Under the pieces are notes generated by a model. It did no database searches. It saw only the letters and a program-made list of their open reading frames with translations, and was not told the origin of the DNA. A program made the translations under genes and the position numbers. A DNA stretch of 64,000 nucleotides, taken from Pseudomonadota bacterium. Lineage in GTDB: Bacteria > Pseudomonadota > Gammaproteobacteria > JAKBBU01. Shown here piece after piece: positions 11,228-22,419 of this stretch. The first letter of the stretch is position 1. Each line of letters opens with the position of its first letter. The DNA is taken from NCBI GenBank assembly GCA_021808365.1, contig JAKBBU010000002.1:13703-77702 (forward strand), in the 5' to 3' direction.

Positions 11228-11388
11228 GGGTCTGTTGACAATTGCTTACCTGAAGCGAAAAAAAGGGAAATCGAGCAAAAATTGACGGTTTTTTGAGGCG
11301 AATATTAGACCTATTTAACGAAAAAAAGCGTCGATTTGTGCCGATTTTACCTTTTTTGCAGCCAGGAGAGCAATTGTCAACAGACCCT
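11228..11388. repeat. About 160-bp imperfect palindromic element with perfect 19-bp terminal inverted repeats (agggtctgttgacaattgc / gcaattgtcaacagaccct)
   Basis: Read directly. Two further solo copies of the gtcaacagaccct core lie at 12782-12794 and, in reverse, at 22384-22396. Confidence 0.55.
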
Positions 11389-11419
11389 AAGGTAATTCTA
11401 ATAAAATAGGGGAAATACA

Positions 11420-12748
11420 ATGAACTTAAGTGAAGACCAGGAAAAACAGATAGAGAATATATCAAAACAATTATTCCGACTCTTTGAAAAAATAAAACAG
11501 GATGATATTGATGACTCAAAAAATTTCTCTAGTAGACTAGGGAGCCTTCGGGATAACCTAAGTAATCTTATCGTAAATTTTTCAGAAAACACTCAAAAAA
11601 TAAGCGATGACACATTTAATCAAAGTTTAAATCCATTTAAGTTATCACTTAATAAATTAGAGAAGGAAATAGAAAAATTTATAACTGAAAAAACTCCGAT
11701 TTCTGAGAATATTATCATTAGGTCCTCTGTTAAGGCTAATTCTCAAAATGACACGTTCTATAAAATGAAAGGACAAGAAATAATAGATCTTTTGGAGAAA
11801 ATAAACGAATTAAATAACCTTAAAGCGGCAGGTCCTTTTCGTAACTCTTTAGAGGACATTCAAACACAGTTGGATGATCTTCTCATAAATGAGGATCAAG
11901 GAACTTATTATTCGTGTATTAATGTCTTTAAAGACGAATTAGTTTCACTTGAAACACGAATTAACAATTATAGTCAAGCCATCACTAACAACACGACTGA
12001 CGTGCCCACTTGGGATTTCAGTGATATCTTAAAAAGTAGCGTTGAAGAAAGTTTGATCAACCCTAGAGTTAAAACTTCATTTGAAGATATTGAACCTCAA
12101 CGGTTGAAAACTCATTTTAGCATTGATGGAATAACTAAAAAATTTTCATCTGACGAGAGAAATGCTCTTTGGGATAAAATGCTTAAGCATTTTAAAGATG
12201 CAGTGAACGAAGCCCAAACTGTTGAAGAGTTATCGACGTTGCAATCAATTTTTGAATACAAAGTAAAACAATATAATCAACGCATAAAGCAAGTGCTCGG
12301 AGCAGTAAACGAGTTGATAAGCTGCAACCCTACTTTCCCAGAAAATCTTGCTCGTGCTGCGAATCAAGAAGAAATTGATAAAATTATTCGTAATGCTTTG
12401 CTAAACACTAGTTGCGTTTCTAAGGTCAGCTTACTTAAGGATTCAAGAGCAACAAAAGTTAATGACAACATAATAGTTGATAACAATTTCAATGATTTTA
12501 ATGTGTATCGTCAAAAAAAACTTGAAGAAATAAATGGACTTTTACTGCAGATGCAGCAAAATGGCGACTTCTCTTTTTTGGAAATTACTGTGACATTAAA
12601 AGAACAAGTGAATGCGGCTGAAAATGGAAAAAAGATAGATGAAGCCTTTGGTCAATATAACCAACACAAAAATAACTTAATTATAGATATGACTGACGAT
12701 GATGATCAAGATTTACAGAAAGCACTTGAATTTAGCAGGAAATACTGA
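11420..12748 (+). CDS. Hypothetical AT-rich coiled-coil protein (N/K/E/S-rich, acidic C-terminus); candidate secreted effector
   Basis: Uninterrupted 442-codon ORF, compositionally distinct from the flanking LPS genes. Possible -35 TTGTCA / -10 TCTAAT upstream. No recognisable enzymatic motif. Confidence 0.6.
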   Translation: MNLSEDQEKQIENISKQLFRLFEKIKQDDIDDSKNFSSRLGSLRDNLSNLIVNFSENTQKISDDTFNQSLNPFKLSLNKLEKEIEKFITEKTPISENIIIRSSVKANSQNDTFYKMKGQEIIDLLEKINELNNLKAAGPFRNSLEDIQTQLDDLLINEDQGTYYSCINVFKDELVSLETRINNYSQAITNNTTDVPTWDFSDILKSSVEESLINPRVKTSFEDIEPQRLKTHFSIDGITKKFSSDERNALWDKMLKHFKDAVNEAQTVEELSTLQSIFEYKVKQYNQRIKQVLGAVNELISCNPTFPENLARAANQEEIDKIIRNALLNTSCVSKVSLLKDSRATKVNDNIIVDNNFNDFNVYRQKKLEEINGLLLQMQQNGDFSFLEITVTLKEQVNAAENGKKIDEAFGQYNQHKNNLIIDMTDDDDQDLQKALEFSRKY

Positions 12749-12825
12749 ACTATTGCAGTTTGTTTTAATTTTTATGTAATGTCAACAGACCCTATAGACT
12801 TCCTCATCATTCAGTCCGATTAAGC

Positions 12826-13527
12826 TTAGATAATCTGCGGTAAATCATAGCAAGCTTTGGCATAATCTTCGGGAATACCAATATCAATAAAATAATTCTG
12901 TGTAAAAAAAGCTTGAGGTTTGAGCTGCTGACATTCCTTGAATAAAAAATCATGTTCAAACGAAAAACACTTTGGTAATGAATAACCAGCGAATAACTCC
13001 TGACTCAGTAAATAAACACCCGCATTGATATAACCCTGACCAGCAAAACCTTTTTCTTGAAAACCAACAATCTCACTATTGTTAATCGTCGCTCGACCAT
13101 AACGACTACAATCAGAAATTTCACACAAGGCTATGCTTAATTTAGAGGTTTTTTCTCTATGATTTTTATACATTGCCTTATAGTCTAAGGTCACAAATGT
13201 ATCACCATTCAAGATAAAAACAGGTTCTTGTACAAGCCATTGTGCCTGTTGCAAAGCATAGCAAATAGCCCCTCCTGTACCTAAGGGTTGCTCCTCAATG
13301 ACATAACTTATTTTTATTCCAACATATTCAGAGAAAAAATAATCGCTAATTCTTTCAGGAAGATAATGTAGTGATAAAATAACTTCTGTGATCCCTTGTC
13401 GGCTCAAATATTCCAATAAATAAGCCAAAAAAGGTTTATTCCCTATGGGTGCCATCGGTTTAGGCAAATCAGAAACTACAGTTTGCAAGCGCGTACCAAA
13501 ACCACCTGCTAGAATAATTGCGCGCAT
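12826..13527 (-). CDS. Sugar-1-phosphate nucleotidyltransferase (D-glycero-D-manno-heptose 1-phosphate guanylyltransferase HddC-like)
   Basis: MRAIILAGGFGTRLQTVVSDLPKPMAPIGNKPFL. Adjacent to gmhA. Confidence 0.8.
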   Translation of the reverse strand: MRAIILAGGFGTRLQTVVSDLPKPMAPIGNKPFLAYLLEYLSRQGITEVILSLHYLPERISDYFFSEYVGIKISYVIEEQPLGTGGAICYALQQAQWLVQEPVFILNGDTFVTLDYKAMYKNHREKTSKLSIALCEISDCSRYGRATINNSEIVGFQEKGFAGQGYINAGVYLLSQELFAGYSLPKCFSFEHDFLFKECQQLKPQAFFTQNYFIDIGIPEDYAKACYDLPQII

Positions 13528-20388: not shown

Positions 20389-20453
20389 TTAAAGCTCGCC
20401 GCTTTTTATCCACTCAATAAAATGGTCTTGTAAAATAGGAGGTAAGGAATTTT

Positions 20454-22283
20454 TCATTCTACTGTCACTGATTTAGCTAAATTTCGAGGCTGATCCACAT
20501 CAGTTCCCCTTCCAACGGCGACATAATATGCCAGCAATTGTAAGGGGATGACATAGATAATAGGGGCAATCAAGTCATCAACATGCGCCATCTTAATCAC
20601 ACGAATGTCGGATTCAACTTCTAAGGACGCTTCCTTATCAGCGAACAAATAAAGTTTACCTCCGCGCGTACGCACTTCTTGTAAATTTGATTTTAATTTT
20701 TCAAGTAATTCATTGTTGGGCACAACAGCTATCACTGGCATCGTCGCATCAACCAAGGCGAGGGGGCCGTGCTTTAATTCACCAGCGGGATACGCTTCCG
20801 CCTGGATATAAGAGAGCTCTTTCATCTTTAAAGCGCCTTCCTTTGCAATAGGATATTGTGTTCCCCGCCCAAGATAGAGCATGTGTTCCTTATCAATAAG
20901 ATCATATACCCAATTTTTTATTTCTGAATCCAACGTCAAAATATGATTCATTGCTTTCGGAATTTGAAGCAATTGTTCAACGATATAATTTTCATGTTCG
21001 GGCACACCATTAAAACGACTCAGCACGGCCGTGAGCATCAAGAGCACCACTAATTGCGTTGTAAAAGCCTTTGTTGAAGCCACACCAATTTCAGGGCCTG
21101 CGCGCGTCATGAGCGATAATTCGGACTCACGAACTAAGGAACTTTCTGGTACATTACAGATTGCCAACGTCGTTAAATAATTTTTATTTTCACGGGCTTT
21201 TCGCAACGCTGCCAATGTATCTGCTGTTTCCCCAGATTGTGAAATAGAGATAAATAAAGTATCTGGCTCAACTACATTTTCTCGATAACGAAATTCACTC
21301 GCAATTTCAACATGTGTGGGCAATTTAGCAAAAGATTCAAGCCAATACTGCGCAAGAAGCGCTGCATGATAGCTCGTACCACACGCTGTAATATGGATAC
21401 GTTTCACTTTTTCAAACCGTTCACGAGAACCCGTACCAAAAATAGCATCCAGTACGTGATTTTTTCCTAAGCGCCCTTCCAAAGTTTTAGCAACGGCATC
21501 GGCTTGTTCAAAAATTTCTTTCTTCATGTAATGCCGATACCCAGCTTTATTGGCCGCATCGTAGTTTGCATCAAATTCGCGCACCACCCGCTCAACATGC
21601 TGGCCTTGATTGTAAATTCTCACGGATTCACGGCGAATATCGGCAATATCACCTTCTTCTAAATAAATAAAACGCTGCGTCACTGGTAAAAGAGCAAGAT
21701 AATCTGAAGCAAGAAAATTTTCACCAATTCCAAGGCCAATCACCAGCGGGCAACCTGAACGTACAGCAATAAGGCGATCGGGATCAGCTGAATTGATGAT
21801 GGCAAGTGAGTAAGCACCTTCTAACTCTGAAGTACAGCGCTGAACAGCTTCTAAAAATTCTTGACCTGTTTTTATTTGAGAATGAATATTATGTACAATT
21901 GTTTCTGTATCTGTTTTTGAATCGAACACATAACCCTTGGCTTCAAGTTCACGACGTAACGTTTCATAGTTTTCAATAATGCCATTATGAACCAGAGCAA
22001 TGGAATTGCCCGAGATGTGAGGATGTGCATTTGCTTCGCTGGGAACACCATGCGTTGCCCAACGCGTATGGGCAATCCCAACAGTACCCGTAAGAGGAGA
22101 CGCCGCAAGAGAAGCTGCCAATTCAGCGACTTTACCCTGCGTGCGACGACGATTCAGCTGATGTTGGGCATCCAGCAGGGCTATCCCCGCAGAGTCATAG
22201 CCACGGTACTCTAGACGGCGTAATCCTTCAAGAAGGATCGCAGCAACATCTCTTTGTGCAATAGCACCTACAATTCCGCACAT
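20454..22283 (-). CDS. glmS: Glutamine--fructose-6-phosphate aminotransferase
   Basis: MCGIVGAI N-terminal nucleophile, two SIS domains, 609 aa. Confidence 0.95.
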   Translation of the reverse strand: MCGIVGAIAQRDVAAILLEGLRRLEYRGYDSAGIALLDAQHQLNRRRTQGKVAELAASLAASPLTGTVGIAHTRWATHGVPSEANAHPHISGNSIALVHNGIIENYETLRRELEAKGYVFDSKTDTETIVHNIHSQIKTGQEFLEAVQRCTSELEGAYSLAIINSADPDRLIAVRSGCPLVIGLGIGENFLASDYLALLPVTQRFIYLEEGDIADIRRESVRIYNQGQHVERVVREFDANYDAANKAGYRHYMKKEIFEQADAVAKTLEGRLGKNHVLDAIFGTGSRERFEKVKRIHITACGTSYHAALLAQYWLESFAKLPTHVEIASEFRYRENVVEPDTLFISISQSGETADTLAALRKARENKNYLTTLAICNVPESSLVRESELSLMTRAGPEIGVASTKAFTTQLVVLLMLTAVLSRFNGVPEHENYIVEQLLQIPKAMNHILTLDSEIKNWVYDLIDKEHMLYLGRGTQYPIAKEGALKMKELSYIQAEAYPAGELKHGPLALVDATMPVIAVVPNNELLEKLKSNLQEVRTRGGKLYLFADKEASLEVESDIRVIKMAHVDDLIAPIIYVIPLQLLAYYVAVGRGTDVDQPRNLAKSVTVE

Positions 22284-22383
22284 GCTTTGGACGCCTCATG
22301 GATTCTTGGCTCATTTAGCCAGAAGTTGGATCATAGGTTGTCAAACCTTGTTTTGCAAGGGCAACCGCATCTTGGGAAAAGGC

Positions 22384-22419
22384 GGTCTGTTGACATCCAA
22401 GAGAACTTTTAGCTACATT
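22384..22419 (+). promoter_or_regulatory. Candidate sigma70-type promoter for the large NACHT gene (perfect TTGACA -35 at 22390-22395 inside a ggtctgTTGACA repeat copy; possible -10 TACATT about 18 nt downstream)
   Basis: Motif reading only; about 75 bp upstream of the RBS GAGGAG. Confidence 0.3.

Follow-up and report, generated by a model that had tools for sequence, protein, structure and literature searches.

A repeated 13-mer read as the terminal inverted repeat of a small IS5-family MITE common in Legionella-like bacteria

Introduction

The Correia elements of Neisseria are small (~100-160 bp), abundant, intergenic repeats that are flanked by TA, bounded by terminal inverted repeats (TIRs) and able to fold into hairpins as RNA. 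Their ends can contribute promoter hexamers, and promoter activity has been demonstrated experimentally. MIC231 of Bacillus cereus, which derives from IS231 (IS4 family), carries IS-type inverted repeats around a passenger gene that is not a transposase, and its mobilisation in trans has also been demonstrated. Within the Legionellales, the MITEs QMITE1 and QMITE2 of Coxiella burnetii are located in intergenic regions or 3'-UTRs and have strong predicted hairpins; QMITE1 copies measure 300-400 bp with variable direct repeats of 2-3 nt, and QMITE2 copies measure 150-190 bp with direct repeats of 7-11 nt (PMC5896051).

Here we analyse a 13-mer that recurs in the window, by which we mean the whole 64,000-nt stretch of DNA under study. 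How does this locus compare with the described systems? The family to which we assign the motif resembles the Correia elements in size, abundance, location, TA flanks, TIRs and hairpin potential, and in ends that can contribute promoter hexamers, but is unrelated to them in sequence, and a family-wide test for hybrid promoters was negative. It resembles QMITE1 and QMITE2 in its host order, its location and its predicted hairpins, but has TA flanks in nearly all copies and different ends. A unit running from 11228 to 12792 would be arranged like MIC231, with the difference that MIC231 has full TIRs at both ends, whereas here one end is only 15 nt long.

Results

The 13-mer GGGTCTGTTGACA occurs exactly three times in the window, at 11228-11240 (+), 11375-11387 (-) and 12780-12792 (-), and a further occurrence at 22383-22395 (+) reads CGGTCTGTTGACA, a 12/13 match. 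The copy at 12780 is oriented like the right arm (11375), and that at 22383 like the left arm (11228). Four occurrences with at most one mismatch compare with 0.05 expected from dinucleotide shuffles; the 22383 copy taken alone is marginally unlikely, as 0.03-0.05 such matches are expected by chance. The sequence-only reading, made before this analysis, had counted four copies of the 13-mer core. The motif is real and non-random, but only three copies are exact, the third and fourth are displaced by 1-2 nt from the positions given for them, and the copy count, coordinates and orientations needed correction. TTGACA is embedded in every one of the four, as had been stated. The 13-mer itself is absent from the searchable literature.

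Two of the four occurrences belong to one intact element, a complete MITE of 160 bp at 11228-11387 (no strand assigned) that is a near-perfect palindrome throughout and has no coding capacity. Its left TIR, GGGTCTGTTGACAATTGCT (19 bp, 11228-11246, +), contains the first 13-mer copy, and its right TIR (19 bp, 11369-11387, -), the perfect complement of the left one, contains the second. TA stands at 11226-11227 and 11388-11389. The inverted pair noticed earlier near 11228 and 11370 thus extends to perfect arms of 21 nt including the flanking TA (11226-11246 and 11369-11389), which lie inside 48-nt arms with 79% complementarity. As RNA the element is predicted to fold into a strong hairpin (-87.9 kcal/mol against -37.6 +/- 3.8 in shuffles; z = -13.3). 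The left TIR shares 18 identical nt with the ends of loci found elsewhere. Full-length relatives with 71-76% identity are present in L108, L059, L064, L166 and L022, and L198 and L103 match in part. When the MITE is aligned with copies of ~160 bp from other lineages, conservation is high over the terminal ~20 nt and much lower in the interior.

All 11-14 contigs of the window's species carry the same arrangement, and two independent assemblies of that species (L002 and L081) break at the MITE or within 30 nt of it, as expected of a repeat. The ~72 kb examined of the window's genome hold one full copy, one solo end and the 12/13 match, and the ~8 kb walked beyond the two window ends added no further copy. 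No Rfam family matched anywhere in the window at the gathering threshold, and a tRNA/tmRNA scan of the window found nothing. The MITE had no blastn match among plasmid records, and an exact 26-mer from its interior had none in the JGI metagenomes.

The ends of the element are widespread. The 18-mer GGGTCTGTTGACAATTGC matches 77 stretches of GTDB species-representative genomes, where we estimate ~17 chance matches for a uniform 18-mer in 596 Gb, and the matches cluster in the Legionellales, with 20, 12 and 9 loci in three MAGs. Further carriers are L. gresilensis, L. qingyii, L. quateirensis, L. bononiensis, a Rickettsiella MAG and a Coxiellaceae MAG, and the 18-mer is also present in Marinobacter. 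In public genomes and metagenomes together the 18-bp end was found at about 200 loci, nearly always preceded by TA (70/80 ends, and 104/~124 ends at metagenome loci). Paired ends delimit 46 elements, which span 46-283 bp plus one size of 854 bp and have TA on both sides in 39 cases. MITEs bounded by this end in the Legionellales cover 34-283 bp in many size classes; the smallest, L120 at 34 bp, is nothing but two TIRs. Several Legionellales genomes carry the elements at numerous loci that are unrelated to one another. Of 42 copies that could be classified, 39 lie between genes, whether these genes are in tandem, divergent or convergent, and there is no bias towards the promoter side of genes. 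To judge from this behaviour of the family, the TA would be a target duplication rather than a part of the repeat. Viral contigs matched the 18-mer twice, both times without TA flanks, and these two matches are probably unrelated to the family.

An element of 854 bp in Marinobacter (L008, L034 and L067) is bounded by the identical 18-bp ends (18/18). Its 249-aa transposase, which has DUF4096 (6.7e-21) and DDE_Tnp_1 (1.7e-20) domains, scores 263.9 bits on the NCBIfam model NF033580 for the IS5 family (cutoff 110). An ISPa67-like IS with 66% amino acid identity, on a Raoultella plasmid (LC735983), has the ends GGGTCTGTTGCCA and TGGCAACAGACCC, preceded by CTA and followed by TAG, respectively. 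Its TIR matches the 13-mer core at 12 of 13 positions, the A of TTGACA being replaced by C (TTGCCA). The window element shares with IS5-family elements of the ISPa67-like type (NF033580), of which the Marinobacter and Raoultella copies are examples, the terminal sequence and the TA, often CTAG, at both junctions, but is 160 bp long, has no transposase gene and has an interior unrelated to that of the IS. Within the IS5 family, small elements that have DUF4096 at the N-terminus and target TA/CTAG would fall into the IS427 group. Neither the window nor the ~8 kb of same-species flanks nor any fetched Legionellales locus yielded a transposase gene with these ends. When the window and every fetched locus were searched by tblastn with the transposase, full copies came only from Marinobacter-type contigs of ~50% G+C. 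The TA flanks had raised the suspicion of an IS630/Tc1-mariner origin, which was rejected since the transposase belongs to the IS5 family. An attC/integron reading of the inverted GTTGAC/GTCAAC cores was also discarded: the core does not fit GTTRRRY, and TA-flanked IS ends explain everything.

Downstream of the MITE, the third exact 13-mer lies in a solo right-end TIR fragment, TGTCAACAGACCC plus TA, at 12780-12794 (-). Its 15 nt are an exact direct repeat of 11375-11389 with no adjoining MITE body, and over the adjoining 100 nt similarity to 176 family arms does not exceed the shuffle level. Between the MITE and this fragment lies ORF442 (11420-12748, +; 442 aa, 33% G+C), an orphan and possible passenger gene whose start codon is only 30 nt from the MITE. 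It has no match in Pfam or NCBIfam, and word-indexed and exhaustive HMMER searches of protein sets of 5.8 billion and 1.84 billion sequences returned only ORF442 itself, in a single genomic context. Its AF2 model is all-helical, with a confidence (pLDDT 39) too low to support a fold search. At the nearest relative found (L083; 69% amino acid identity in the neighbouring transferase), which is too distant to provide an empty site at the nucleotide level, the epimerase and nucleotidyltransferase genes abut without an insert. The block formed by the MITE, ORF442 and the solo TIR may have arrived by insertion between convergent sugar-pathway genes, in the intergenic space at their 3' ends.

The TIR-like 12/13 match at 22383-22395 (+) is without flanking TA and lies upstream of the NACHT gene, whose ATG is at 22483 and whose 1,707-aa product has no orthologues in the databases searched. 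Beyond the 13 nt this copy has no similarity to family arms, with scores at the shuffle level. We called promoters as -35 and -10 hexamers 16-18 nt apart, with A at position 2 and T at position 6 of the -10. Of the two sites, only 22390-22419 was called, and not the region upstream of ORF442. The consensus scan gave 10/12 for TTGACA (22390-22395) followed after 18 nt by TACATT (22414-22419), which bears out the earlier remark that a plausible -10 stands at the right distance from this TTGACA.

Discussion

Based on these comparisons, we propose that the 13-mer forms the outer section of the TIR of non-autonomous IS5-family transposons, that is MITEs, which are mobilised in trans and insert at TA; drawing on the sequence evidence, we put the probability of this assignment at about 0.88. 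An IS5-family DDE transposase would act on the MITEs in trans and direct their insertion to TA dinucleotides. Conservation of the motif would result from the binding and cleavage of the ends by the transposase, and the TTGACA embedded in it would then be incidental. The suggestion in the sequence-only reading that the repeat might be a remnant TIR of one MITE family agrees well with this proposal, as the 13-mer coincides with the outermost and best-conserved part of a TA-flanked TIR.

The same reading had also offered a shared sigma-70 promoter or regulator-binding module, which would co-regulate the 442-aa and NACHT genes. Such a module would account for the TTGACA in each copy and for its pairing with TACATT near the NACHT gene, and the short distance between the MITE and ORF442 means that any dedicated promoter of that gene must overlap the element. 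Yet we consider it very improbable. In both MITE arms the TTGACA points inward and has no -10 at 16-18 nt. The outward TTGTCA (11374-11379) is followed after 17 nt by TCTAAT (11397-11402) just as had been described, but this hexamer lacks the A at position 2 and failed the scan, and no promoter-like site was called on the + strand within 11000-13000. Across 167 ends of the family, -10-like hexamers stand at 16-18 nt from the outward TTGTCA in 3.2% of cases against a background of 3.3%, so the motif shows no family-wide -10 enrichment; nor do the insertion contexts favour the promoter side. The related ISPa67-like IS has TTGCCA in this place, and the presence of transposon ends in unrelated contexts and taxa already explains the motif. 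The coincidence with a consensus-like promoter is confined to the 22383 copy and hence to one site. That copy could be a short remnant of a left end or could match by chance; on sequence grounds it is probably a further relic. The alternative, namely that the copy has nothing to do with the transposon and is a good NACHT-promoter -35 region whose likeness to the TIR is accidental, deserves serious consideration, although we lean against it. It would fit the mismatch at the terminal G, the missing TA, the lack of likeness beyond 13 nt, the post hoc manner in which the copy was noticed and its position where a promoter is needed, with a consensus-like -10 following. Against it stand the low number of such matches expected in the window, the existence of a short solo end of the same family 9.6 kb away (12780) and an 8-nt ATTGTCAA at 22418-22425 that resembles the inner right arm, a resemblance seen post hoc and with a shuffle-level score.

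What might the solo end at 12780 have to do with ORF442? The left TIR at 11228 and the right end at 12792 could delimit a mobile cassette, a TA-flanked unit of 1,565 bp moved whole by the transposase, which is compatible with the MITE explanation and would deliver ORF442 into a polysaccharide gene cluster. The two ends, at 11228 (+) and 12792 (-), are mutually inverted, enclose the ORF and both abut TA; ORF442 is an orphan with a G+C of 0.33 against ~0.39 in its neighbours; and a single insertion would explain everything, given that the flanking genes abut in L083. At L103 a roughly comparable ORF lies between two TA-flanked TIR copies, but these are in direct orientation. We treat the cassette as a tentative and rather improbable reading. 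Its distal end is just 15 nt with no further TIR match, the TA flanks say nothing, since any insertion would require TA as its target, and partial copies near genes are expected by chance in MITE-rich genomes. The unit is seen at one locus only and ORF442 has no homologues, so that any mobility of the unit is putative. Integration of a circular ORF442 cassette into the right end of the MITE, by a site-specific or microhomology event that duplicated a 15-nt core, would fit the topology, in which the insert is flanked by exact direct repeats (11375-11389 and 12780-12794) and one repeat belongs to an element that was already present. We regard it as highly unlikely: no gene for an integrase or a recombinase lies nearby, tRNAs and Rfam features are absent, and no second example of the arrangement was seen. 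A wider proposal makes the IS5-type ends of this Legionellales lineage both vehicle and promoter donor, the 11228/12792 cassette having brought ORF442 into a conserved polysaccharide gene cluster and the 22383 relic having supplied the -35 of the NACHT gene; judged from sequence it seems unlikely.

What are the implications of the MITE assignment? As far as sequence comparison tells, the motif is the ordinary TIR of a small IS5-family MITE common in Legionella-like bacteria. Annotators should mask it as the end of a transposon instead of scoring it as regulatory, and should expect short-read assemblies to break at the 160-bp hairpin. The family is found in Legionella species, Rickettsiella, Coxiellaceae and uncultured relatives, and its exact ends are common to an IS of Marinobacter, which makes them a usable marker for the exchange of mobile elements in aquatic gammaproteobacteria. 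Were ORF442 indeed delivered as a cassette, this would be a concrete way for orphan, effector-like genes to reach conserved loci. If the ends acted as vehicle and promoter donor as well, transposon ends would serve lineage-specific genes such as the orphans ORF442 and NACHT.

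Results

Using a motif search, the 13-mer GGGTCTGTTGACA was found in exact form at 11228-11240 (+), 11375-11387 (-) and 12780-12792 (-) of the window, and as the 12/13 copy CGGTCTGTTGACA at 22383-22395 (+). The sequence-only reading had described four copies; the repeat is real, but three copies are exact and one is not, and the last two lie 1-2 nt away from the coordinates proposed there. As dinucleotide shuffles are expected to yield 0.05 matches with at most one mismatch, the set is not a product of chance; the fourth copy taken singly is a 3-5% event. An extended 20-mer, TAGGGTCTGTTGACAATTGC, is confined to the first two sites in the window, even when three mismatches are allowed.

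These two sites are the ends of a 160-bp MITE (11228-11387) bordered by TA at both junctions. Complementarity between the arms is perfect over 21 nt, TA included, and 79% across 48 nt, and the whole element folds into a single hairpin of -87.9 kcal/mol, compared with -37.6 +/- 3.8 kcal/mol for shuffles (z = -13.3). An NAD-dependent epimerase gene (10185-11105) has its stop 120 nt ahead of the element, and the ATG of a 442-aa ORF (11420-12748) follows 30 nt beyond it; the ORF region has a G+C of 0.33 versus about 0.39 nearby. The neighbouring genes belong to a cluster for heptose/nucleotide-sugar functions and ABC-2 export. The third copy is a solo end at 12780, exact over 15 nt including the TA and oriented as the right arm. 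It separates the ORF, whose stop lies 32 nt before it, from a convergent nucleotidyltransferase gene with its stop 31 nt away. Compared with family members, its flank resembles no element body.

Other palindromes populate the window. A second MITE-like element at 15199-15423 (225 bp, 27-nt arms at 89% complementarity, DNA fold z = -7) has a 110-nt core 74% identical to that of the 11228 element, an additional insert of about 60 nt containing GTCATCCCGGGATGAC, and ends unlike those of the 11228 element (CTAGGGCGTGTCCTT..., also given as CTAGGGCGTGTCCTTCAACC); one core therefore occurs with two types of terminal inverted repeat (TIR). At 28088-28376, just downstream of a NACHT gene and an entericidin-like ORF, a nested palindrome of 289 bp whose outer arms (CAGGGCTATCGGGTTAAAAG...) pair perfectly over 32 nt probably represents another repeat family; pieces related to its inner segments (CGTCATCCCGGAATTTAG...) are found again near 37.0 kb (36972-37082). 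Perfect long inverted repeats at 35718-35848 (35-nt arms, 61 nt apart) and 62900-63043 (46-nt arms, 52 nt apart, overlapping the 3' end of an rsmB-like gene) are unrelated in sequence to the 13-mer and the MITE. Near-perfect hairpins at 43375-43460 (39-nt arms) and 44071-44155 (31-nt arms) flank a 189-aa ORF (43494-44063) and have in common the 29-nt segment AAGGCTGCGCCAATGCGTGTTGTGGCATT at 93%.

A scan of one genome per bacterial species for the 18-mer GGGTCTGTTGACAATTGC returned 77 stretches, where we estimate about 17 by chance. The matches are concentrated in Legionellales, with 20, 12 and 9 loci in three MAGs and others in Legionella gresilensis, L. qingyii, L. quateirensis, L. bononiensis and Rickettsiella and Coxiellaceae MAGs; the 18-mer is also present in Marinobacter. 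TA precedes 70 of 80 ends, and 46 ends are paired with an inverted copy no more than 1 kb away, with TA on both sides in 39. The paired elements measure 46, 63-113, 124, 138, about 160 and 209-283 bp, and 854 bp. The 46-bp version occupies at least seven loci of one MAG (L003, L004, L010, L025, L053, L061 and L063). Two cyanobacterial MAGs, Caldora and Symploca (L033/L035), carry the 18-mer without TA in a common sequence context.

In metagenomes, the TIR was detected in at least 120 stretches. Among the matches listed, TA adjoins 104 of about 124 ends; roughly half are Marinobacter-type IS on contigs of about 50% G+C and the remainder are MITEs on contigs of 31-45% G+C. One 34-bp copy (L120, 170-203) consists of two abutting TIRs alone. 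Copies of the window's own subfamily (L108, L198, L103, L059 and L064) are 72-76% identical, and an alignment of 13 copies measuring about 160 bp shows good conservation over the terminal 20 nt or so and a far more variable interior. A Marinobacter-type IS on a contig binned as Virgibacillus (L029) suggests mis-binning or transfer.

The protein encoded by the 854-bp Marinobacter elements is 249 aa long, carries DUF4096 and DDE_Tnp_1 domains and scores 263.9 bits (cutoff 110) against the IS5 family transposase model NF033580 of NCBIfam. Among named proteins in plasmid records, it is closest to an ISPa67-like transposase (66% identity), whose element terminates in CTA|GGGTCTGTTGCCA ... TGGCAACAGACCC|TAG.

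Discussion

Based on these observations, we identify the repeat as the TIR of an IS5-family-type MITE, accompanied by one solo end and one doubtful relic. The earlier suggestion of a MITE TIR is borne out by identical TA-flanked 18-mer ends in other MITEs and in the 854-bp Marinobacter IS. As the termini are conserved across the family, the 13-mer, the outer part of the TIR, is the most conserved part of the transposon end. Reasoning from IS ends in general, the simplest explanation is that the transposase would bind and cleave at the 13-mer and so keep it conserved. A census found MITEs in 99.6% of Legionella genomes (PMC11602168). The Coxiella elements QMITE1 and QMITE2 (PMC5896051) differ from the window MITE in size and direct repeats, and the 13-mer is absent from the searchable literature.

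Does the repeat also act as a shared promoter or regulator-binding module, the other proposal of the sequence-only reading? A consensus-like promoter, TTGACA-18-TACATT (10/12), was recovered by consensus scan at 22390, as that reading had anticipated, and this predicted site may well drive the NACHT gene; it is the single such site among the copies. TTGTCA-17-TCTAAT is present before the 442-aa ORF, but lacks the A at position 2 of the -10, and the scan called no + strand promoter between 11000 and 13000. In both MITE arms TTGACA points inward and lacks a -10 partner. At 167 distinct TA-flanked ends from low-G+C loci, -10-like hexamers lie 16-18 nt from the outward TTGTCA at 3.2%, against a background of 3.3%. 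TTGACA is retained in 75 of 95 partner arms, and the ISPa67-like end reads TTGCCA. Moreover, 39 of 42 classifiable MITE copies are intergenic, and their spread over tandem (22), divergent (10) and convergent (7) gene pairs indicates no preference for promoter-side positions. A promoter or regulator-binding module common to the copies is not supported and appears very unlikely.

The fourth copy (22383) has no TA flank, its mismatch falls on the terminal G and its similarity to known family arms extends no further. We lean towards a short relic like that at 12780; otherwise a good -35 region happens to resemble the TIR. The 1,707-aa NACHT/HEAT-repeat protein encoded downstream (22483-27606) is, like the 442-aa ORF, an orphan: at E <= 1e-20 it has no homologue but itself among 5.8 billion proteins, and consequently there is no orthologous upstream region to distinguish relic from coincidence. 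The 442-aa protein matched only itself, both in a word-indexed search and when 1.84 billion representatives were searched exhaustively; Pfam and NCBIfam gave no match, and its structure model is all-helical and of low confidence. The arrangement around its gene is the same in all contigs of the species, and the breakpoints of two assemblies fall at the MITE or immediately next to it. In the nearest relative found (L083), gene order is as in the window and the nucleotidyltransferase is 69% identical, but the 3' ends of the epimerase and nucleotidyltransferase genes touch or overlap; in terms of gene order, the 1.7-kb interval of the window is thus an insertion. A single mobile-insertion-cassette-like unit of 1,565 bp, from the left end at 11228 to the solo end at 12792, would explain MITE, gene and solo end together, as these ends are mutually inverted and both adjoin TA. 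However, the distal end is only 15 nt long, the TA flanks are uninformative and the unit is known from one locus, and we regard this one-step insertion as rather unlikely, though compatible with the MITE TIR. A loose parallel is found in a metagenome contig of 32% G+C (L103, 5400-6665), where two TA-preceded TIR copies, arranged as direct repeats, enclose a 322-aa ORF; some 50 nt of MITE arm accompany the first copy. Elsewhere in L083 (1-3349), glmU is followed directly by glmS and then by ABC transporter genes; in the window (17033-22283) glmS and the NACHT gene face each other, with four dTDP-sugar (rml-type) genes between glmS and the transporter, so the locus has been rearranged more than once.

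What do these copies imply for the genes around them? Correia elements are TA-flanked and about 100-155 bp long; these and, for a gene-carrying unit, MIC231 appear to us the closest functional analogues. The motif is a genuine repeat, and its explanation as a MITE end is an ordinary one. There is a modest residual possibility that such ends brought in one orphan gene and today provide a second one with a promoter hexamer.
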